From: Caldilineales bacterium
Lineage (GTDB): Bacteria > Chloroflexota > Anaerolineae > JAAEKA01
DNA length: 64,000 nt
Assembly (NCBI GenBank): GCA_025055015.1
Contig: JANWYQ010000210.1
Location: 22,223-86,222, forward strand
Reading direction: 5' to 3'
Below the pieces are notes generated by a model. The model was given only the letters and a program-made list of their open reading frames with translations, was not told the origin of the DNA and did no database searches. The position numbers and the translations under genes were made by a program. This document shows, in pieces, positions 24,152 through 35,935 of the stretch; within the stretch, counting starts at the first letter, position 1, and every line of letters begins with the position of its first letter.

Positions 24152-27100
24152 GTGTTGCTCCCTCGTTGGAGACCAGAAAACGTGATCTATCGTGTCGAAG
24201 TGTCGCTCAGGCCAGGCCTCCCGGACGCGCGCGGGGCGGCGCTGCTGCGGCAGGCCGAGGCGCTGGGGGTGAGGGGGGTGCACTCCCTGGCAGTGGCCGA
24301 CCTGTACTTTCTGGCCGGCGAGCTGGACGAGGACGCCTTGCAGCGGCTGGTGGCCGAGCTCCTCCACGACCCGGTGGTGGAGGAGGCGCTGTGGCGACCT
24401 GTGTCGGCAGGCGCAGAGCCGGCAGCGCCCGCTGACGCCTGGTCCGTCGAGGTGACCTTGCTGCCCGGCGTGACCGACAGCGTGGCCGAGAGCCTGATGG
24501 CCGGCGCTGCGATGATCGGCGTCCACGGCCTGCGCCGGGCTGCCTCCGGCCGTCGCTATACGTTGACGGGGGACCTGAGCGAGGTGGACGTGCACCGAGT
24601 GGCCCGCGGCCTGTTGGCCAACGAGGTGATCCAGCGCTACTGGGTCAACCGGCCGGCGAGGCCGCCCTTCCTGGAGGATGGGCGCGACGGCGCGTCAGGG
24701 GAGGCAGATGGGGCGCCGTGGGTGGAGGTCATCCCCTTGCGGGAGGCGGACGACGCCGGCCTGCTGGCCATCAGCCAGGCGCGGCGGCTGGCCTTGGACC
24801 TGGCCGAGATGCGGGCGATCCAGGCCTACTTCCGGGCGGCGGCGCGCGAGCCCACCGACGTGGAGCTAGAGATGCTGGCCCAGACCTGGTCCGAGCACTG
24901 CGTCCACAAGACCTTCAAGGCCGTCATCGAGTACGTCGGACCGCCTCCGGGCCCGGTGGAGCCAACCAGCGCTCACCGGTCACCGCTTGCCGCTCAGCGA
25001 ATAGACGGCCTGCTCAAAACCTACATCCGCGCGGCCACGGAGAAGGTGGCCAAGCCCTGGGTGCGCTCTGCCTTCGTGGACAACGCCGGCATCGTGGCCT
25101 ACGACGACCGGTTCGACGTGGCCTTCAAGGTGGAGACCCACAACCATCCCTCGGCGTTGGAGCCCTTCGGCGGCGCCAACACCGGCGTGGGCGGCGTGGT
25201 CCGGGACATCATCGGCGTCAGCGCGCGGCCGATCGCCAACACCGACGTCCTGTTTTTCGGCCCGCGCGACCTGCCCTGGGAGCAGCTCCCGGCCGGCGTG
25301 TTGCACCCGCGGCGCATCGCCGACGGCGTGGTCGCCGGCATCGAGGACTACGGCAACAAGATGGGCATCCCCACGGTCAACGGCGCCATCTTCACCGACC
25401 CTGGCTACACGGCCAACCCGCTGGTGTTCTGCGGCTGCGTGGGCATCCTGCCTCACGGCTCCCACCGCACCCAGCCCCAGCCGGGCGATCTGGTGGTGGT
25501 GATCGGCGGCCGCACCGGCCGCGACGGCCTGCGCGGCGCTACCTTCTCCTCCATGGAGATGGACCACCAGACGGGGGAGATCGCCAGCAGCGCGGTGCAG
25601 ATCGGCCACCCGATCCACGAGAAGCAGGTGCTGGAAGCGGTGCTGCAGGCGCGGGACGAGGGGCTGTACAACGCCATCACCGACTGCGGCGCAGGCGGGC
25701 TCTCCTCGGCCATCGGCGAGATGGCCAAGGCGCTGGGCGCGGTGGTGCACCTGGAGCGGGCGCCGTTGAAGTACACCGGCCTGCGGCCGTGGGAGATCTG
25801 GCTCAGCGAGGCGCAGGAGCGGATGGTGCTGGCCGTGCCGCCCGCCCGATGGCCGCGCTTCCAGGCCATCTGCGCAGGGCTGGACGTGGAGGCCACGGCC
25901 TTGGGCGAGTTCACTGGCGATGGCCGTCTGCGCATCTTCTACGGCGAGCACCTGGTGGGCGACGTGGACGTGGCCTTCCTGCACGATGGCATCCCGCAGC
26001 GGCAGCTCAGGGCGGAGTGGCGCCCTGGTCAATGGTCAATGGTCAATGGTCAATGGCCAATGGTCAATGGCCGATGGTCAATGGCCAATGGTCAATGGCC
26101 GATGGTCAATGGCCAATGGTCAATGGCCAATTTGACGGAGGTGCTGGTGGCGCTGCTGGGCATGCCGGAGACGCGCAGCAAGGAGCCTGTGGTGCGGCAG
26201 TACGACCACGAGGTGCAGGGCGGCACCGTGGTCAAGCCCTTGGTGGGCGCGGGGAACGCCGGGCCCGGCGACGCCGCCGTCCTGATCCCGCTGGACGTCC
26301 TGCGTCGAGCGGCGAGCGGTGAACCGTCTGCGGTGAAGCGTGAGGCTGTGCGCGGGATCGCGTTGGCCGTCGGCGCCAACCCCTTCTACACGGCGCTGGA
26401 CCCCTACTGCATGGCCTGGGCGGCAGTGGACGAGGCGGTGCGCAACGTGGTGGCGGTGGGCGCGGACCCCGACCAGGTGTCCCTGCTGGACAACTTCTCC
26501 TGGGGCAATCCTAACCTGCCCGACCGGCTGGGCAGCCTGGTGCGCTGCGTGCAGGGCTGCCACGACGCGGCCGTGGCCTATGCCGCGCCTTTCATCAGCG
26601 GCAAGGACAGCCTGAACAACGAGTACACCGGCGCGGACGGCCAGAAGCACGCCATTCCCGGCACCCTGGTGATCTCGGCCCTGGGCATCGTGCCGGACGC
26701 CGGCCGCACCGTGACCATGGACCTGAAGCGCGCCGGCGACTGGCTGTACATCGTCGGCCTGACGCGCGGGGAGCTGGGCGGGTCGAGCTGGTTGCGCCGC
26801 TTCGGCGCCGCTGCAGTGGGCGTTCCGCCCCAGCCGCCCACGGACGCCCTCGACCTGTATCGCCGCTTGCACCGGGCTATCCGCCAGGGGCTAGTGCAGG
26901 CCTGCCACGACTGCTCCGAGGGAGGCCTGGCCGTGGCCGCGGCCGAGATGGCGCTGGCCGGCGGGCTCGGCCTGGAGCTGCGCCTGGCCGCGGTTCCCCG
27001 CACGGCCGAGGCCGACAGCGACGCCGTCGTCGCTTTCTGCGAGTCCCTGGGCCGGCTGCTGGTGGCCGTGCGCCCCTCCGCCTCCGACGCCTTCGAGGCC

Positions 27101-27235
27101 CTGCTGGCCGGCCACCCTGTGGCCCGCATCGGCCGCGTGCGCAGCGACAACAGGATCGTCGTGACAGGCCTAGGCGGCCAGCCGGTCATCGAAACCGATC
27201 TGACCGCCGTGGAAAAAGCCTGGCGCAGCGAGTGA
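24152..27235 (+). CDS. purL: FGAM synthase subunit PurL with two fused N-terminal PurS-like domains (PurS-PurS-PurL)
   Basis: Two ~85-aa PurS-like repeats followed by PurL motifs (SEHCVHKTF, DCGAGGLSSAIGEMA, duplicated AIRS-like halves). Contains an in-frame heptamer repeat (see repeat feature). Confidence 0.85.
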   Translation: MLLPRWRPENVIYRVEVSLRPGLPDARGAALLRQAEALGVRGVHSLAVADLYFLAGELDEDALQRLVAELLHDPVVEEALWRPVSAGAEPAAPADAWSVEVTLLPGVTDSVAESLMAGAAMIGVHGLRRAASGRRYTLTGDLSEVDVHRVARGLLANEVIQRYWVNRPARPPFLEDGRDGASGEADGAPWVEVIPLREADDAGLLAISQARRLALDLAEMRAIQAYFRAAAREPTDVELEMLAQTWSEHCVHKTFKAVIEYVGPPPGPVEPTSAHRSPLAAQRIDGLLKTYIRAATEKVAKPWVRSAFVDNAGIVAYDDRFDVAFKVETHNHPSALEPFGGANTGVGGVVRDIIGVSARPIANTDVLFFGPRDLPWEQLPAGVLHPRRIADGVVAGIEDYGNKMGIPTVNGAIFTDPGYTANPLVFCGCVGILPHGSHRTQPQPGDLVVVIGGRTGRDGLRGATFSSMEMDHQTGEIASSAVQIGHPIHEKQVLEAVLQARDEGLYNAITDCGAGGLSSAIGEMAKALGAVVHLERAPLKYTGLRPWEIWLSEAQERMVLAVPPARWPRFQAICAGLDVEATALGEFTGDGRLRIFYGEHLVGDVDVAFLHDGIPQRQLRAEWRPGQWSMVNGQWPMVNGRWSMANGQWPMVNGQWSMANLTEVLVALLGMPETRSKEPVVRQYDHEVQGGTVVKPLVGAGNAGPGDAAVLIPLDVLRRAASGEPSAVKREAVRGIALAVGANPFYTALDPYCMAWAAVDEAVRNVVAVGADPDQVSLLDNFSWGNPNLPDRLGSLVRCVQGCHDAAVAYAAPFISGKDSLNNEYTGADGQKHAIPGTLVISALGIVPDAGRTVTMDLKRAGDWLYIVGLTRGELGGSSWLRRFGAAAVGVPPQPPTDALDLYRRLHRAIRQGLVQACHDCSEGGLAVAAAEMALAGGLGLELRLAAVPRTAEADSDAVVAFCESLGRLLVAVRPSASDAFEALLAGHPVARIGRVRSDNRIVVTGLGGQPVIETDLTAVEKAWRSE
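26016..26120 (+). repeat. 15 x 7-bp tandem repeat (TGGTCAA/TGGCCAA/TGGCCGA), in frame within the purL inter-domain linker
   Basis: 105 bp of perfect 7-nt periodicity encoding GQWSMVN/GQWPMVN x5. Confidence 0.9.
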
Positions 27236-27352: not shown

Positions 27353-28186
27353 ATGCTCCCACCCATCCTGATCCTCCATGCCACCGGCACCAACCGCGAC
27401 CGCGAGGCGGCGTGGGCGTGTGAGCTGGCCGGCGGCGCGCCGGAGATCGTGCACATGAACCAGCTCCTGGCCGGCGAGCGCCGCCTGATGGACTACCGCA
27501 TGCTGGTGTTACCCGGCGGCTTCAGCTACGGCGACGACCTGGGCGCGGGCAAGCTGTGGGCCGTGGCCCTGCGCCATGGCCTGGGCGACGGGCTGGAAGC
27601 CTTTGTGGCCGCCGGCCGGCCGGTGTTGGGCATCTGCAACGGCTTCCAGGCCCTGGTCAAGGCCGGCCTGTTGCCTGCCCTTCGCGACATGGAGCCTTTG
27701 TCCAATCTATCCATCTCTCCATCTACCAACCAACAAGCCACCCTCACCCGCAACGACTCGGGCCGCTTCGAGTGCCGTTGGGTCTACCTGCAGCCGCAGG
27801 CCGGCAGCCCGTGCGTGTTCACCCAAGGGCTCCACGAGCCGATTTACTGCCCGGTGGCCCACGGCGAGGGCAAGTTCGTGGCGCGGGACAAGGCCACCCT
27901 GGCCGCCATCGAGGCACAGGGGCTGGTGGCGCTGCGCTACGCGCGCGAGCCGCACGCGGCTGAGGCCGCCGCTGCCGAGGGGGTGGAATACCCCTGGAAC
28001 CCCAACGGCTCGCAGAACGACATCGCCGGCGTGTGCAACCCGGCCGGCAACGTCTTCGGCCTGATGCCGCATCCGGAGGACCACATCGTGCCCCACCAAC
28101 ATCCGCGCGCCCACCGTGGCGAGCACGGGTGTCTGGGCTTGCCGCTGTTCGTCAACGGCGTGCGCTACGCCGCGGAGGTTGGTTGA
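27353..28186 (+). CDS. purQ: FGAM synthase glutaminase subunit PurQ (class I GATase)
   Basis: LPGGFSYGDDL, GICNGFQ (Cys nucleophile), HPE motif. Contains a low-GC ~50-nt insertion at 27699-27750 with 7-nt periodicity. Confidence 0.85.
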   Translation: MLPPILILHATGTNRDREAAWACELAGGAPEIVHMNQLLAGERRLMDYRMLVLPGGFSYGDDLGAGKLWAVALRHGLGDGLEAFVAAGRPVLGICNGFQALVKAGLLPALRDMEPLSNLSISPSTNQQATLTRNDSGRFECRWVYLQPQAGSPCVFTQGLHEPIYCPVAHGEGKFVARDKATLAAIEAQGLVALRYAREPHAAEAAAAEGVEYPWNPNGSQNDIAGVCNPAGNVFGLMPHPEDHIVPHQHPRAHRGEHGCLGLPLFVNGVRYAAEVG

Positions 28187-29308: not shown

Positions 29309-29800
29309 ATGGCCTTCGTTCCCATCATCATGGGCTCCAAGTCCGACTTGAAGCACGGCCAGGAGATCGCGGCGGAGCTGGCCAAGTTTGGCATCGCCAG
29401 CGAGATCCGCGTCGCCTCGGCCCACAAGGTCCCAGCCTACGTGCTGGAGCTGCTGGCCGCCTACGAGGCCGACCCGCAGCCCAAGGTCTACATCACCGTG
29501 GCCGGCCGCAGCAACGCGCTCAGCGGGCTGGTGGACGGCAGCGTCAAGGCGCCGGTCATCGCGTGCCCGCCGGCCTCCGATCGCTTCGGCGGCGCGGACA
29601 TCTTCTCGTCGTTGCGCATGCCCTCCGGCATCGCGCCGGCCGTGGTGCTGGAGCCGTCCGCGGCTGCCTTGCTGGCCGCCAAGATCCTGGCCCTGGCCGA
29701 GCCGGCCCTGCGCGAGCGGGTTGAGGCTGCCCAGCAGGCTGCGCGGCAGGCGATCGTGGACGATGATAGGGCGGTGCGGGGCGTCAAGGGCAGCCCGTAG
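29309..29800 (+). CDS. purE: N5-CAIR mutase PurE
   Basis: IIMGSKSD, SAHK, AGRSNALSG motifs. RBS caaggagga. Confidence 0.85.
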   Translation: MAFVPIIMGSKSDLKHGQEIAAELAKFGIASEIRVASAHKVPAYVLELLAAYEADPQPKVYITVAGRSNALSGLVDGSVKAPVIACPPASDRFGGADIFSSLRMPSGIAPAVVLEPSAAALLAAKILALAEPALRERVEAAQQAARQAIVDDDRAVRGVKGSP

Positions 29801-29939
29801 CCCGTAAGCCGCCCAGTGGATGCATCTCATGTGTGACGAGTGATGCGTAACAAGCAATGCGCAAGGTGTGAGCGGCGTGGGCGCGCGGCCTTGCCGGTTG
29901 TGCCTTGCTCGTTGCTTAGGGCATCTTCAGTCGGCTCCA

Positions 29940-31421
29940 ATGGATCAAGACCCCTTCCCCTACGACCTCGACCGCCCCCGCGAGGCCTGCGGCGTCTTCG
30001 GCATCTACGCGCCCGGCGTGGACGTGGCGCGCACGACCTTCTTTGCCCTCTACGCCTTGCAGCACCGGGGGCAGGAGAGCGCCGGCATCGCCACGTGCGA
30101 CGGCCAGGTGGCCTACATCCACAAGGGCATGGGGCTGGTGCACCAGGTGTTCAACGAGGACAACCTACGGCCCCTCAAGGGCCACCTGGCCATCGGCCAC
30201 AACCGCTACTCCACCACCGGCGGCAGCCACCTGCGCAACGCCCAGCCCTACCTGATCGAGACCATGCACGGCCCCCTGGCGGTCGGCCACAACGGCAACC
30301 TCACCAACGCGCTGCGCCTGCGCCAGAAGCTGTTGGAGCGCGGGGTAGGGCTGATCTCCTCCAGCGACAGCGAGGTGATCACCCAGATGCTGGCCGCGCC
30401 GCCGCCGGGCGCCGGCCTGGCCAAGCCCGACTGGGAGGCTCGACTGGCGGCCTTCATGGCCGAGGCCGAGGGCGCCTATTCCCTGGTGATCCTGACGCGG
30501 CACGCGGTCTACGGCGTGCGCGACCCGCTGGGCCTCCGGCCGCTGTGCATCGGCCGGCTGCCGGAGAACGGCCACGCTGCCGGCTACGTGCTGGCCTCGG
30601 AGTCCTGCGCGCTAGGCACCATCGGCGCCGAGTTCGTGCGCGAGGTGCGGCCGGGTGAGATCGTCCGGCTGGACGCCGACGGCCTGCACGCTATCCAGGC
30701 CGTGGAGCCTGCCCGGCCGCCCGCCTTTTGCATCTTTGAGTACGTCTACTTCGCGCGGCCCGACTCGGTCATCGAGGGCCAGACCGTGCACCGGGTGCGC
30801 CAGCGGCTGGGCGAGACGCTGGCCCGCGAGGCGCCGGCCGACGCCGACATCGTGGTGGGCGTGCCCGACTCGGCCACGCCGGCCGCCATCGGCTATGCCA
30901 TCGCCTCCGGCCTGCCCTACACCGAGGGGCTGACCAAGAACCGCTACATCGGGCGCACCTTCATCCAGCCCGACGACCGGCTGCGCAAGGCGGGCGTGCA
31001 CCTCAAGTACAACCCCCTGCGCGCCAACCTGGAGGGCAAGCGGGTGGTGTTGGTGGACGATAGCATCGTGCGCGGCAACACGGCCGGGCCGCTGGTGCGC
31101 CTGCTGCGGGAGGGCGGCGCGGTGGAAGTGCACGTGCGGGTCAGCTCGCCGCCGGTGCGCTATCCCTGCTTCATGGGGATTGACATGGCGCGCGGGGAGG
31201 AGCTGATCGGCTACGCCAAGACCGTGGAGGAGATCCGCCAACACATCGGCGCCGACAGCCTGGCCTACCTCTCCCACCAGGGCATGATGCGCGCGGTGAT
31301 GGCCGAGCTGCGGGGCGAGGGCGGCCACTGCAGCGCCTGCTTCACCGGCTCCTACCCCATCCAGCTCGAGGAGTGGTGGACGGCCAAGGAGAAGCTGGCC
31401 TTCGAGGGAATATGGGGCTAG
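29940..31421 (+). CDS. purF: Amidophosphoribosyltransferase PurF
   Basis: N-terminal Ntn glutaminase CGVFGIY after propeptide, PRTase motif VVLVDDSIVRGNT, C-terminal 4Fe-4S Cys ligands (CxxC...C). Confidence 0.9.
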   Translation: MDQDPFPYDLDRPREACGVFGIYAPGVDVARTTFFALYALQHRGQESAGIATCDGQVAYIHKGMGLVHQVFNEDNLRPLKGHLAIGHNRYSTTGGSHLRNAQPYLIETMHGPLAVGHNGNLTNALRLRQKLLERGVGLISSSDSEVITQMLAAPPPGAGLAKPDWEARLAAFMAEAEGAYSLVILTRHAVYGVRDPLGLRPLCIGRLPENGHAAGYVLASESCALGTIGAEFVREVRPGEIVRLDADGLHAIQAVEPARPPAFCIFEYVYFARPDSVIEGQTVHRVRQRLGETLAREAPADADIVVGVPDSATPAAIGYAIASGLPYTEGLTKNRYIGRTFIQPDDRLRKAGVHLKYNPLRANLEGKRVVLVDDSIVRGNTAGPLVRLLREGGAVEVHVRVSSPPVRYPCFMGIDMARGEELIGYAKTVEEIRQHIGADSLAYLSHQGMMRAVMAELRGEGGHCSACFTGSYPIQLEEWWTAKEKLAFEGIWG

Positions 31422-31426
31422 GGGGC

Positions 31427-31455
31427 TTGACCTGGGTCCCATCCTGCATTATACT
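31427..31455 (+). promoter_or_regulatory. Canonical sigma70-type promoter TTGACC-17-TATACT driving the TA module
   Basis: Exact 17-nt spacer, 21 nt upstream of the ORF start. Confidence 0.5.
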
Positions 31456-31491
31456 GGCATCAGACCGGTTCCTAGCGTGCAAGGTGTGGCC

Positions 31492-31728
31492 ATGACAGTT
31501 ACTGTGTCTGTTTACGAGGCAAAGGCCCTGTTTTCTGAGCTTTTGGATCGCGTGGTCGCCGGCGAAGAGGTACTTATCGCCGATGCCGGGAAGCCTGTAG
31601 CCCGCCTGATGCCGTTCGTCGAGCAGCCGACACAAAGAACACCAGGCACGGCGATAGGCAAGATCACCATAGCCCCAGATTTCGACGATCCCTTGCCTGA
31701 CGAGATTTTGGACCTCTTCGAGGCATGA
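31492..31728 (+). CDS. Type II antitoxin, Phd/YefM-like
   Basis: MTVTVSVYEAKALFSELLDRV...PVARLMP fits the Phd/YefM fold. Stop overlaps the vapC start (ATGA). Confidence 0.55.
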   Translation: MTVTVSVYEAKALFSELLDRVVAGEEVLIADAGKPVARLMPFVEQPTQRTPGTAIGKITIAPDFDDPLPDEILDLFEA

Positions 31729-32111
31729 GAGCGTTGCTAGACACGCACGCGTTTCTGTGGTGGATCACCAATGATCCACGGCTAACTGCACGCGTGCAGA
31801 AGACCGTCCAGAACCCTGGAAACCTCATCTTCTTGAGCGCAGCTAGCGGATGGGAGCTTGCTATTAAAGCGAGCATCGGCAAACTTCATGTGTCTCAAGA
31901 TCTCGATACGTTTATCAGTGAACAGTTGACGCTCAACCGCATTGATGTGCTGCCCGTACTGATGAGCCACGCTCTCTTCGTGCGCAAATTGCCCGCGCAC
32001 CACAGAGACCCCTTTGATCGTTTGTTGGTGGCCCAGAGCCTTGTTGAAGGGATGCCCCTGATAACAAGCGATCCGCTAATCGCGAAATACTCCGTGCAGG
32101 TGATCTGGTAG
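31725..32111 (+). CDS. vapC: PIN-domain toxin VapC
   Basis: LLDTHAFLWW..., SAASGWELAIK, and ITSD motifs of VapC. Confidence 0.75.
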   Translation: MRALLDTHAFLWWITNDPRLTARVQKTVQNPGNLIFLSAASGWELAIKASIGKLHVSQDLDTFISEQLTLNRIDVLPVLMSHALFVRKLPAHHRDPFDRLLVAQSLVEGMPLITSDPLIAKYSVQVIW

Positions 32112-32127
32112 GGAGCCGAGCTCGAGA

Positions 32128-33441
32128 ATGGAACTTGTTCTCGTCATCGGTCGCGGGGGCCGTGAGCACGCGCTGGCCTGGAAGCTGGCGCAGTCCTCGC
32201 GCGTGCAGCGGGTGTGGGTCGCGCCGGGCAACGGCGGCACGGCGCTGGCGGGCGGCAAGATCGCCAACGTTCCCCTGCCGGAGAGCGACTTCGCAGGGCT
32301 GATTGCCTTCGCCAGGCAGAACGGCGTGACCCTGACCGTGGTGGGGCCGGAGGCGCCGCTGGCCGAGGGCATCGTGGACGCCTTCCAGGCCGCGGGCCTC
32401 CGCTGCTTCGGCCCCTCCAGGGCTGCGGCGCAGATCGAGGCCTCCAAGGCATTTGCCAAGGACTTCATGGCCCGCCACGGCATCCCCACCGCCCGCTATG
32501 CCATCTTCACCGACTTCGACGCGGCCCTGGCCCATCTGCGCCGGGTAGACTACCCGGTGGTGATCAAGGCCTCGGGCCTGGCTGCCGGCACAGGGGTGAT
32601 CGTGCCGGATACGCCGGACGATGCCGAGGCGGCCCTGCGCCAGATCATGGTGGCACGGGAGTTCGGCGCAGCCGGCGATCAGGTGGTGATCGAGGAGCGG
32701 CTGGAGGGGCAGGAGGCGTCGGTGTTGGCTTTCTGCGACGGCCGCACGGTGGCGGTGATGCCGGCCGCGCAGGACCACAAGCGGGTCTTTGACGGTGACC
32801 AAGGCCCCAACACCGGCGGCATGGGCGCCTATGCGCCGGCCCCCCTGGTGACCCCGCAGCTTCTGGAGGAGGTGCGCCGCACCGTCCTGCAGCCGGCGGT
32901 GGACGGCCTCGCCGCCGAGGGCGCTCCTTACGTCGGCGTCCTCTACGCCGGCTTGATGATCGCCCCGAGCCGCTCACCGCTCACCGTTCGGGGCTCATCC
33001 CTCCACGTTCTCGAGTTCAACTGTCGCTTCGGCGACCCCGAGACCCAGGCCATCCTGCCCCTGTTGGAGAGCGACCTGGTGGAGGTGGTGGAAGCCTGTC
33101 TGGACGGCCGGCTGGCCGAGGCAGACGTGCGCTGGCGGCAGGGCTCGGCGGCCACCGTAGTCGCCGCGTCGGAGGGCTACCCCGGCCCGTATCCCAAGGG
33201 CCGCGAGGTCGCCGGCGTGGCCGAGGCCGAGGCGCTGCCGGGCGTGGCAGTGTTCCACGCCGGCACGCGGCTGACGGAGGACGGCCGGCTGGTGACCGAC
33301 GGCGGCCGCGTGCTGGCCGTCACCGGCGTCGGCGACGACTTGACGACGGCGCTGGCCCGCGCCTACGCTGCCATCGAGCGCATCCGCTTCCAGGGTATGC
33401 ACTATCGTCGCGACATTGGCGCCAAGGCCATCGTAGGTTAA
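32128..33441 (+). CDS. purD: Phosphoribosylamine-glycine ligase PurD
   Basis: ATP-grasp PurD motifs (VLVIGRGGREHALAWKL, VIKASGLAAGTGV, EFNCRFGDPETQ). Small in-frame repeat-derived insertion at 32971-32991. Confidence 0.9.
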   Translation: MELVLVIGRGGREHALAWKLAQSSRVQRVWVAPGNGGTALAGGKIANVPLPESDFAGLIAFARQNGVTLTVVGPEAPLAEGIVDAFQAAGLRCFGPSRAAAQIEASKAFAKDFMARHGIPTARYAIFTDFDAALAHLRRVDYPVVIKASGLAAGTGVIVPDTPDDAEAALRQIMVAREFGAAGDQVVIEERLEGQEASVLAFCDGRTVAVMPAAQDHKRVFDGDQGPNTGGMGAYAPAPLVTPQLLEEVRRTVLQPAVDGLAAEGAPYVGVLYAGLMIAPSRSPLTVRGSSLHVLEFNCRFGDPETQAILPLLESDLVEVVEACLDGRLAEADVRWRQGSAATVVAASEGYPGPYPKGREVAGVAEAEALPGVAVFHAGTRLTEDGRLVTDGGRVLAVTGVGDDLTTALARAYAAIERIRFQGMHYRRDIGAKAIVG

Positions 33442-33464
33442 AATGCAGCCATGGCCGAGCCGGG

Positions 33465-34037
33465 ATGTACGATGGGCCGGCAGAGCTGTTGACCTACTTC
33501 CCGGACTTCCGCTACTGGCTGGTGGATCTCAGCCAGTTCACCGACCAGGAGGTCCGCGGCGAGGCGGTCTTGCGGCTGGTCCTCCTGGCCATGAAGCATG
33601 TCAACGACCCAGACGGCATCCGTCGGGTCTGCGAGATCTTCGACCTAATGGAGCGGCTGTGGCAGACGGAGAGCACGGCGGAGGTCGTAGCCTTGGTCTT
33701 GCGCTATCTCGCCACAGGCAGCACCACCATGACGGAAGCAGACCTGCGAGACGCCATGGAGCAACATTGGCCCGAAGGAGTGACGATTATGGCAACGATA
33801 GCAGACAATTGGTTGCGGCAGGGCATTCAGCAAGGCATTCTGCAAGGGCGACGTGAGGGCTTGATTGACGCGATCAGCCTGGGCATCCGCCTGCGCTTCG
33901 GCAAAGAAGGGCTGCCGCTCCTGCCCGAAATCCGCAGGATCGAGGACATCGCGGTGTTGGAGGCCATCTACGACAGCTTTGAAACCATCGAAAGCCTCGA
34001 CGACCTGCGGCGCATCTACGCCCGACCCCAGCCATGA
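33465..34037 (+). pseudogene. Rpn/YhgA-like putative transposase, C-terminal portion only (DUF4351-like); N-terminal PD-(D/E)XK domain missing
   Basis: C-terminal ...WLRQGIQQGILQGRREGLIDAISLGIRLRFG... resembles Rpn-family tails. The ORF is ~190 aa versus ~300 for intact members. Wedged between purD and purM. Confidence 0.4.
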
Positions 34038-35050
34038 GCCCTTCCGCCTACGCAAGGGCCGGAGTGGACATCGCTGCCGGCAACCGCGCCGTGAAGCTGA
34101 TGCGCGACGCAGTGCGCTCCACCTACGGCCCTGAGGTGCTGCTGGGGATCGGCGCGTTCGGCGGCCTGTTCAACGCCGCCGCGCTGAAGGCCATGGACGC
34201 GCCGGTGCTGGTGGCGTCCACCGACGGCGTGGGCACCAAGACCAAGGTCGCTGCGGCCCTGGTCCGCTACGAGACCATCGGCCACGACCTGGTCAACCAC
34301 TGCGTCAACGACATCCTGGTGCAGGGCGCGCGGCCGCTGTTCTTCCTGGACTACATTGCCAGCAGCCGGCTGGACCCGGAGATGGTGGCCACGGTGGTGA
34401 GTGGCGTGGCCGCCGCCTGCCGAGCGGTGGGCTGCGCGCTGCTGGGCGGCGAGACCGCAGAGATGCCCGATGTCTACGCCCCCGGCGAGTTCGACCTGGT
34501 GGGGACCATCGTGGGCGTGGTGGACCGCCGGGAGATCATAGACGGCTCGGCTGTGCGGCCGGGCGATGCGGTGATCGGCCTGCCCTCCTCAGGCCTGCAC
34601 ACCAACGGCTACTCCCTGGCCCGCCGTGTGTTGGACGGCTGGGACCTCCGGGCGGAGGCACCGGAGCTGGGCCGGCCGCTGGGCGAGGCGCTGTTGGCGC
34701 CCCACCGCTGCTATTTGGCCGAGGTCCAACGCCTGCGCCGGGCCGGCGTTCGCATCAATGCACTCGCCCACATCACGGGCGGCGGCCTGATAGACAACCC
34801 GCCGCGCATCCTGCCCCCCGGCACGGCCATCCGCCTGCGCCGCGGCAGCTGGCCTATCCCTCCCCTCTTCCACCTCCTCCAGCGCGTCGGCCAGATTGAC
34901 GACGCCGAGATGGCCCACGTCTTCAACCTGGGCCTGGGCATGCTGATCGTCCTCCCCGCCGATCAGGCAAACCTGGCCCTGAGCGTTCTGGGCGAGGGTT
35001 GGCTGGTGGGTGAGGTGGTGGAGGGCGAGCCGCAGTGTGTGATTGCGTAA
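34034..35050 (+). CDS. purM: AIR synthetase PurM
   Basis: Motifs GVDIAAGN, VASTDGVGTK, GGETAEMP. ATGA overlap with the upstream ORF. Confidence 0.9.
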   Translation: MSPSAYARAGVDIAAGNRAVKLMRDAVRSTYGPEVLLGIGAFGGLFNAAALKAMDAPVLVASTDGVGTKTKVAAALVRYETIGHDLVNHCVNDILVQGARPLFFLDYIASSRLDPEMVATVVSGVAAACRAVGCALLGGETAEMPDVYAPGEFDLVGTIVGVVDRREIIDGSAVRPGDAVIGLPSSGLHTNGYSLARRVLDGWDLRAEAPELGRPLGEALLAPHRCYLAEVQRLRRAGVRINALAHITGGGLIDNPPRILPPGTAIRLRRGSWPIPPLFHLLQRVGQIDDAEMAHVFNLGLGMLIVLPADQANLALSVLGEGWLVGEVVEGEPQCVIA

Positions 35051-35057
35051 TCCCTCC

Positions 35058-35675
35058 ATGCCCCCTCGCCTCGCCGTTCTCATCTCCGGCAGCGGCACCA
35101 ACCTGCAGGCCATCATGGACGCCATCGCAGCTGGCCGGCTCGACGCACAGATCGTGGTCGTGGTGTCCAACCGCCGCGACGCCTATGGCCTGGTGCGCGC
35201 GGGGCGGGCCGGCATTCCTACCCTCTACGTTCCCCTCAAGCCCTACACCGAGGCAGGCCGGCCGCGCGCGGACTACGACGCCGACCTGGCCGAGCGGGTG
35301 GCGGCCTACGCGCCCGACCTGGTGGTGTTGGCCGGCTGGATGCACGTGCTCAGCCCGTCCTTCCTGGATCGCTTTCCCGGCCGCGTTCTCAACCTGCACC
35401 CGGCGCTGCCCGGCCAGTTCCCCGGCACCCATGCCATCCAGCGCGCGTTCGAAGCTTTCCGGCGGGGGGAGATTGACCACACCGGCGTCATGGTCCACTG
35501 GGTGGTGCCCGAGGTGGATGCCGGGCCGGTGATCGCCAGCGAGGTTGTCCCCATCCTCCCCACGGACACGGTGGACGACCTGGAGGCGCGTGTCCACGCC
35601 GTCGAGCATCGCCTGTTGGTGGAGGCTATCCGCCGCGCGTTGGGGGAGCGGTGGTCGGTGAACGGTGAACGGTGA
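35058..35675 (+). CDS. purN: GAR formyltransferase PurN
   Basis: LISGSGTNL, NLHPALPG..G, HxV..ExDxGP motifs. C-terminal tail (GERWSVNGER) is encoded by heptamer repeats. Confidence 0.85.
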   Translation: MPPRLAVLISGSGTNLQAIMDAIAAGRLDAQIVVVVSNRRDAYGLVRAGRAGIPTLYVPLKPYTEAGRPRADYDADLAERVAAYAPDLVVLAGWMHVLSPSFLDRFPGRVLNLHPALPGQFPGTHAIQRAFEAFRRGEIDHTGVMVHWVVPEVDAGPVIASEVVPILPTDTVDDLEARVHAVEHRLLVEAIRRALGERWSVNGER

Positions 35676-35692
35676 ACGGTAAACGCTGAACG
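35654..35692. repeat. Heptamer repeat GGTGAAC x ~5 spanning the purN stop codon
   Basis: ggtggtcggtgaacggtgaacggtgaacggtaaacgctgaacgg. Confidence 0.7.
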
Positions 35693-35693
35693 G

Positions 35694-35935
35694 TTTTTGT
35701 GGAGTGCGCACCCCCAGGTGCGCACGGGGGTTGGGTTTTGCGAAGTGCGCCCTCCAGGTGCGCGCCAGCCCCTAGGTTTTCGGAGTGCGCACCCCTAGGT
35801 GCGCAGGGGGGCTGGGTTTTGTGGAGTGCGCTCCCTGGGTCCGCGCCAGCCCCTAGGTTTTCGGAGTGCGCCCCCCAGGTGAGCACGGAAAGGTTGCACC
35901 CCTAGGTGCGCACGGGAGGGTTGCCCCCGTCTTGC
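35694..35935. repeat. Tandem array of ~6 degenerate 41-bp units, each with a 9-bp GC hairpin (GTGCGCACC-cccA-GGTGCGCAC) and a TTTT tract; REP/BIME-like
   Basis: Units TTTTGyGGAGTGCGCnCCCCyAGGTGCGCrsGGGsyGG repeated head-to-tail between convergent purN and the exonuclease gene. Confidence 0.75.

Follow-up and report, generated by a model that had tools for sequence, protein, structure and literature searches.

The purine biosynthesis operon of an uncultured Anaerolineae clade carries a toxin-antitoxin pair, phd-vapC, between purF and purD, and the pair is selectively maintained there across lineages whose synonymous divergence is high or saturated. The explanation that we favor, and consider likely as a whole, is that phd-vapC was gained once and long ago together with its own promoter, has since been inherited vertically and maintained, and now has a promoter that may feed the distal pur genes; a second gene, rpn, was fixed in the operon as well and was later deleted at its 5′ end in the lineage described here. 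The phd-vapC operon would have entered from the mobile pool in the ancestor of the clade, at a gap of 40-80 nt between purF and purD, with vertical inheritance ever since. This account builds on domain assignments, synteny, purifying selection, hexamer conservation and deletion anatomy, all of which are established in this analysis.

The DNA under study, referred to as the window, is a stretch of 64,000 nt (contig JANWYQ010000210.1 of assembly GCA_025055015.1, positions 22,223-86,222), and coordinates given below are window positions unless they carry another label; L-numbers designate relatives' loci or contigs and P-numbers designate protein clusters. The ORF list and Pfam matches place in the window a purL-Q-C-E-F-D-M-N operon with all genes co-oriented (Table 1). 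The purF-purD interval measures 706 bp and is occupied by two small ORFs, phd and vapC. The probable start of purF is the Met at 29940, which is where relatives begin. With a metagenome-assembled genome (GCA_033578055.1, here L081, labelled at NCBI as Caldilineales or Anaerolineae bacterium) the window shares 99.6% identity without being an exact copy of it, and an exact-protein look-up with the window PurD returned zero matches. Rfam, run over the whole window at gathering thresholds, reported zero riboswitches or other RNA families.

Table 1. Features of the purine operon and its inserted genes, in window coordinates.
Feature	Position	Strand	Basis
purL	24152-27235	+	
purQ	27353-28186	+	
purC	end 29190	+	
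purE	29309-29800	+	
purF, amidophosphoribosyltransferase, left flank of phd-vapC	29868-31421 in ORF list	+	Pfam GATase_6/7, Pribosyltran
Sigma-70-type promoter of phd-vapC (-35 TTGACC 31427-31432, 17-nt spacer, -10 TATACT 31450-31455)	31427-31455	+	consensus scan
phd/yefM-type antitoxin gene, 78 aa	31492-31728	+	PF02604, TIGR01552
vapC PIN-domain toxin gene, 128 aa	31725-32111	+	PF01850
purD, GAR synthetase, right flank of phd-vapC	32128-33441	+	Pfam GARS_N/A/C
Second promoter-like site TTGGCG-17-TAAAAT, over purD stop	33416-33444	+	consensus scan
Residual rpn start ATGGCCGAGCCG (= MAEP), then deletion junction	33451-33492	+	DNA alignment with L085, L097 and L181; translation
C-terminal 190 codons of Rpn (YhgA-like) gene	33465-34037	+	PF04754, partial match
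purM, AIR synthetase, downstream flank	34034-35050	+	Pfam AIRS, AIRS_C
purN	35043-35675	+	

Tandem repeats were observed in several of these operons. In the window, a heptanucleotide array (TGGTCAA/TGGCCAA, about 15 units) lies within purL at 26026-26131, where its in-frame translation reads GQWSMVNGQWPMVNG..., and in the 99.6%-identical genome (L081 329-409) the same array is 4 units shorter, a 28-nt gap that causes purL to be called as two ORFs. The difference may reflect a true change of copy number within an essential gene, or it may come from the assembly. Period-7 arrays with differing units are scattered over the pur operons of the clade (purL at L091 1448-1564, purD at L085 8609-8663, intergenic sites in L083 and L085, and window 35649-35694), some of them within coding DNA, and none was found in the outgroups L001, L002, L006 and L007. 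At the end of the operon, (CGGTGAA)x5.6 makes up the 3′ end of the window purN ORF, and the gap 3′ of purN (35695-35888) contains an 81-nt repeat in 2.3 copies with an 87% match.

The identity of the pair is clear from profile searches. The initial annotation had proposed a Phd/YefM antitoxin and a VapC PIN toxin, coupled through ATGA, between purF and purD, and both the ORF positions and the Pfam models agree with it, each domain scoring above its curated cutoff. Phd matches PF02604 (PhdYeFM_antitox, E=2.3e-9, 37.3 bits versus a cutoff of 29.8) as well as the NCBIfam model TIGR01552 (phd_fam, E=1e-8), and VapC matches PF01850 (PIN, E=3.4e-13, 50.7 bits versus a cutoff of 23.6) over profile positions 2-116 of 120. 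The acidic residues of the PIN domain (three Asp and one Glu: D6, E44, D95/D98 and D116) are present in VapC and are invariant or nearly so in 18 homologues, and NCBI annotates an identical protein as a VapC family toxin. The stop of phd and the start of vapC share the ATGA at 31725-31728, a layout that is identical in all relatives; the phd ATG at 31492 is invariant among them, and the upstream GTG at 31477 is unneeded. Other resources were silent: NCBIfam gave zero VapC-model matches for the window VapC, a PDB sequence search with VapC gave none at E<=0.01, and PADLOC gave no match for Phd or VapC. As far as its sequence tells, phd-vapC is an ordinary type II toxin-antitoxin member of the Phd/VapC class, in which VapC, a PIN-domain ribonuclease by family, is predicted to be an active toxin. 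Phd would neutralise VapC and would probably repress the conserved promoter described below, an autoregulatory mechanism presumed from the family.

The location of the pair is conserved among close relatives. VapC homologues form a group at 70-79% identity, followed by a gap down to 64% or less. When VapC clusters were looked up (P0001, which is the window's own at 100%, and P0004, P0005, P0007, P0011, P0012 and P0013, at 70-77% identity), 7/7 showed the same slot of phd (78 aa), vapC (128 aa) and purD, with purF upstream wherever the contig extends; the P0005 contig begins inside phd, so that phd-vapC-purD alone is visible there. Members of this clade, which were located through exact-protein look-ups, are 87-92% identical to the window in PurF, 80-85% in PurD, 72-82% in Phd and 70-77% in VapC, ranges that exclude L083 (a long-read contig broken by frameshifts). 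The relatives are metagenomic contigs, and membership of the clade is defined by sequence distances, not by a genome phylogeny. By these distances L001 is an outgroup, both in PurF (79-82% versus 88-95% within the clade, the window PurF being at 82%) and in PurD (69-75%). A PurD scan that retained one genome per species supplied seven genomes of more distant Anaerolineae/Chloroflexota in which the operon has the same gene order (L001-L004, L006, L007 and L016), and in each of them the distance from purF to purD is below about 100 bp, with no toxin-antitoxin pair in between. Since these genomes are pair-less at purF-purD, phd-vapC is not ancestral to the class. The purF-purD-purM synteny therefore has two sides for the insertion that was originally suggested: within the clade the pair is conserved in place, which speaks against that reading there, and outside the clade it is absent.

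Further afield, the family is found without purine genes. Among 80 more distant VapC homologues (40-63% identity) none has pur-gene neighbours, and a Phd gene lies upstream in 69 of the 80 loci. In JGI metagenome contigs all VapC homologues were at 63% identity or less and none adjoined pur genes. The VapC family is frequent on plasmids (538 records, at 51% identity or less), and a search of viral contigs found no VapC relative. In Nostoc mirabile a homologous phd-vapC (37-44% identity) sits 3.5 kb upstream of purD (L013 1894-2494), which is probably a coincidence. The idea that mobile elements have passed through the operon thus survives in part: a foreign origin is supported by the absence of the pair from the seven distant genomes and by the presence of the family on plasmids, whereas recency is contradicted by the clade-wide slot and by purifying selection.

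The borders of the insert are shared as well. On the left, 6/6 aligned lineages have the identical arrangement of purF stop, about 5 nt and CTTGACC, and on the right the junction is identical in 5/5 aligned lineages (TGGTAGGGA). One old acquisition in the ancestor of the clade followed by vertical descent would be the simplest history for this pattern. In pairwise Phd/VapC distances, L091, L097 and L183 group more tightly than they do by PurF/PurD, and some recombination of the phd-vapC cassette between lineages is possible from these distances. The string 'IW*TAGGG', which occurs at the ends of both purF and vapC, was considered as a duplicated junction and rejected, because VapC proteins in other contexts natively end in IW. 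Around 31422-32127 and 33442-34033, the search for terminal inverted repeats or target-site duplications found no bracketing repeat pair, and no transposase was found in the region.

Other genes have entered other junctions of the operon. A GNAT acetyltransferase gene (Pfam Acetyltransf_1, E=3.5e-16) lies between purC and purE in some relatives (L085 4505-4972, L091 4547-5014 and L083 5056-5529) and is absent from the window, where the purC-purE spacer is 119 nt, and from the outgroup L001. Unrelated inserts occur at further junctions in distant Anaerolineae (L002 7260-10714, L006 7242-8719, L003 8265-10356, L007 8189-9468, and purE-purF in L002 and L004); from translations read by eye, purK and a purH-like gene are among them, along with a sugar-kinase-like ORF, a tandem pair of ORFs like P-loop kinases and a large ORF that resembles a secreted protein. 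The intergenic junctions of the operon are generally permissive to gene gain.

Once in place, phd-vapC has been kept under purifying selection and is selectively maintained. By the Nei-Gojobori method in four lineages, dN/dS is 0.06-0.17 for phd, 0.09-0.14 for vapC, 0.08-0.15 for rpn and 0.12-0.22 for the pur genes; the values for phd-vapC are approximate because dS is saturated (synonymous divergence of 0.65 to >2). The ORF lengths of 78 and 128 aa are constant in every complete copy found (the end of the L184 contig cuts phd). The pair has also kept a distinct composition. In the window, phd-vapC has a GC content of 52-57% versus 68-75% in the flanks, and across four lineages phd/vapC range from 52-59% in GC and 55-72% in GC3, compared with 68-72% and 83-95% for the pur genes. 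Given that the low GC and GC3 are stable across all four lineages, the atypical composition is no sign of recent transfer here.

The promoter upstream of phd is conserved to a similar degree. TTGACC-17-TATACT, which the initial annotation had pointed out ahead of the pair and which is indeed present, agrees with the consensus at 10/12 positions, and a scan of 10 kb found 2 promoter-like sites versus 0.6 +/- 0.8 in shuffles. When the purF-phd spacer (73 nt) is aligned across six lineages, neither CTTGACC nor TATACTG varies and their spacing is fixed at 17 nt; a TCCT located 5 bases upstream of the -10 is also invariant, and other spacer and leader positions vary freely. Free-standing members of the family have a TTGAC-N17-TATACT-like site upstream of phd in 23/56 cases, versus 0.016 expected per 110 nt. 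As the same promoter type is found in these members, the promoter arrived with the cassette. The usual form in free-standing members is TTGACTTAGTCCAGGACCTAGTCTATACT, overlapped by two GACTTAGTC-like palindromes. Palindromes of this type are not conserved in the pur-embedded clade; a search for a clade-wide palindromic operator found none, and the sole inverted repeat around the -10 occurs in L091 and L183.

Transcription from this promoter could extend beyond the pair. The vapC stop and a Shine-Dalgarno-like motif (TAGGGAG) are conserved, the gap from the vapC stop to purD is 10-16 nt (16 nt in the window), and a scan of 27-37 kb found no terminator-like sites on the + strand. Because no terminator lies between vapC and purD, transcripts from the phd promoter would run on through the distal genes purD, rpn, purM and purN, and transcription continuing from purF would also cover phd-vapC. 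Internal transcription of purD-purM-purN from the phd promoter is plausible in light of the conserved hexamers, the short gap before purD and the missing terminator, and it would be the best-supported functional consequence of the insertion. Promoter use, autoregulation and co-transcription with the distal pur genes are predictions from these sequence features.

The second insert, between purD and purM, has a related history. The initial annotation described a truncated, C-terminal Rpn/YhgA-like transposase fragment two genes after the pair. The truncation holds: the window ORF matches Pfam Transposase_31 (PF04754) at profile positions 137-200 of 203 only (E=1.5e-6), and it is recognized as truncated because homologues are 318-331 aa long (318-338 aa, at 65-85% identity, for the full-length Rpn homologues overall). 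Its position was miscounted, as a single gene (purD) separates it from the pair, and it is not the trace of a passing element: it is a 5′-deleted rpn that relatives keep full-length at the same site. The purD-purM slot of L085, L091, L097 and L181 holds a full-length rpn of 330-338 aa that shares 59-85% identity with the window ORF over the C-terminal part, the L085 protein matches PF04754 end to end (positions 1-200, E=9e-56), and the frameshift-ridden long-read contig L083 has Rpn-like sequence in the same slot, split over several called ORFs. Rpn genes are themselves described as nuclease toxin/antitoxin defence genes, not conventional transposases, and the nuclease is blocked by RpnS, a small protein that corresponds to the C-terminal domain and is translated either from an internal start or from its own gene (PMC10400941). 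Of the N-terminal PD-(D/E)XK-type nuclease domain, the window copy is missing about the first 136 residues; by its sequence it is a remnant, not RpnL. The number of four-residue repeats (QGIQ/QGLQ/QGIS) differs among the window, L085, L091, L097 and P0122-P0129. Pfam DUF4351 had no match to Rpn at E<=1, and PADLOC gave marginal matches only.

The deletion itself can be read from the alignment. The old rpn start is joined out of frame to an internal ...GGGATGTACGATGGG, and the old frame now forms a 13-codon ORF ending in TGA; relative to L181 about 394 bp are missing, out of frame, with GCCG at both ends. On the favored account, the purD-purM slot of this clade acquired rpn as a fixed gene, and the nuclease half was then lost in the window lineage between GCCG microhomologies. 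The deletion is also present in the 99.6%-identical L081 (L082 stops short of that site), and no full-length rpn exists elsewhere in the 64-kb window. Among Rpn homologues five in-frame Mets are conserved, and the first Met of the surviving ORF is conserved in 7/8 full-length homologues aligned. The overlap of the rpn stop with the purM start (ATGA) is found in the window, L085 and L181. Compared with L181, the fragment has a pairwise dN/dS of 0.136, with 5 amino-acid changes on the window branch versus 11 on the L181 branch and 12 versus 13 synonymous changes, so either the deletion may be recent or the fragment may still be constrained. Expression of the fragment, or a role for it, would be a further supposition from these patterns.

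A second promoter-like site precedes rpn. TTGGCG-17-TAAAAT is invariant in five rpn-bearing lineages, and the Ile codon inside its -35 is ATT in 5/5 of them, compared with ATC in the rpn-less outgroup L001. ATT is an unusual codon against the ~90% GC3 of purD. The -10 of the site stops 6 nt short of the original rpn ATG, a spacing that suggests a leaderless rpn transcript or one with a very short leader.

How the two inserts came to be where they are could be explained in other ways. A recent visit by mobile elements, in which a toxin-antitoxin cassette and a transposase passed through and the low GC marks their recency, would account for the contrast between phd-vapC and its ~70% GC flanks, for the abundance of the family on plasmids and for the lack of the pair in more distant Anaerolineae. 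Such an event is very improbable, because slot, junctions and promoter are the same in lineages with PurD down to 80-85% identity, and the low GC and GC3 recur in all four lineages despite saturated synonymous sites; neither insert has terminal inverted repeats or target-site duplications, and no relative is found on viral contigs. Nor do the pur flanks show the near-identity that would be expected if one recombinant segment had spread. Independent arrivals of related cassettes at a purF-purD hotspot in several lineages seem less probable still. Different inserts do occupy other operon junctions in more distant relatives, and distances for the toxin-antitoxin genes do not fully match those for the pur genes, but the left junction is the same in six lineages and the right junction in five, and the VapC proteins of the clade form a tight group of at least 70% identity, the next homologues being at 64% or less with none examined near pur genes. 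A single old gain therefore remains the preferred history.

The reason for retention is a separate matter. If selection acted on the promoter only, as a driver of purD-purM-purN, phd and vapC would be decaying passengers, which fits the invariant hexamers and the degeneration, within the clade, of the operator-like palindromes of free-standing relatives. Decay is not what the genes display (both ORFs are intact and of constant length in every complete copy, dN/dS is ~0.1, and the catalytic acidic residues and the ATGA overlap are kept), and we give this possibility little credence. The opposite extreme is that phd-vapC (and Rpn) have been co-opted as functional, promoter-bearing parts of the operon that tie purine transcription to growth control or phage defence through the toxin-antitoxin balance. 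In its variants, purF read-through would shift the toxin:antitoxin ratio, or the autoregulated promoter would tune the distal pur genes and be physiological for purD-purM-purN, and the orphan Rpn ORF would be an RpnS-like antitoxin in the window lineage. Long-term retention under purifying selection is consistent with such a role, as are the tight packing with ATGA overlaps at phd/vapC and rpn/purM, the conservation of both promoter-like sites and an Rpn fragment without relaxed constraint on the window branch; separately encoded RpnS genes are known in other bacteria (PMC10400941). Against it, the rpn deletion (shared with L081) may be simply recent, the 13-codon out-of-frame ORF overlaps the ATG of the fragment and argues against its efficient translation, and the 64-kb window has no full-length rpn. 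Taken together, full integration of this kind is a tentative and rather unlikely proposal, and old acquisition with simple maintenance of the pair is still the explanation that we prefer.

Toxin-antitoxin pairs on chromosomes are usually regarded as cargo that is selfish, turns over fast or belongs to defence islands. In this clade, a Phd/VapC pair of ordinary type and an Rpn gene have kept the same slots of a core operon through divergence that saturates synonymous sites. The operon could therefore offer a natural system for studying how a toxin-antitoxin promoter is recruited as an internal operon promoter and how an intact toxin is preserved in the long term. It also carries a caution, in that the atypical GC and GC3 of the inserts are no indicator of recent transfer here. 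What is unusual is the context: both modules are fixed in a purine operon, with 4-nt overlaps, 9-16-nt gaps, conserved promoter-like sites and purifying selection. Searches of the literature gave no relevant account of a toxin-antitoxin pair located within a pur operon.

The closest known counterparts of the pair are VapBC-class modules with a Phd/YefM antitoxin (PF01850 plus PF02604). These share with phd-vapC the antitoxin-toxin order, the 4-nt overlap, the sizes of 78 and 128 aa, the acidic residues and a sigma-70 promoter; plasmid copies carry the same annotation, and Phd is the usual partner of this VapC (69/80 loci). The window pair differs in lying inside a purine operon, co-oriented with it and syntenic across a clade, and in that the promoter-overlapping GACTTAGTC-type repeats of free-standing relatives are not conserved in the clade. 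For Rpn, the counterpart is the RpnL/RpnS system (YhgA-like, PF04754), in which a stand-alone RpnS copy of E. coli, YpaA, is ~61 aa long. The relatives' 330-338-aa proteins resemble RpnL in their end-to-end PF04754 match and their variable QGIQ, QGLQ and QGIS repeats; the window copy differs in being without most of the nuclease domain, and its 190-aa fragment is much longer than YpaA. Zhong et al. (2023) describe both variable-number C-terminal four-residue repeats and stand-alone C-terminal-domain genes, and they do not describe a location within a pur operon in which the gene overlaps purM by ATGA (PMC10400941).

Toxin-antitoxin pairs that are co-transcribed with a housekeeping or regulatory operon have precedents. 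In E. coli, mazEF is linked to relA. In Listeria, mazEF is described as lying directly upstream of the sigB operon (PMC5308263). As in the purine operon, these pairs have a stable linkage and a shared orientation with core genes, and their promoter can feed the genes downstream. They differ from phd-vapC in the toxin (MazF versus VapC), in the operon (here a purine operon) and in the phylum, and for phd-vapC co-transcription with the pur genes is a prediction.
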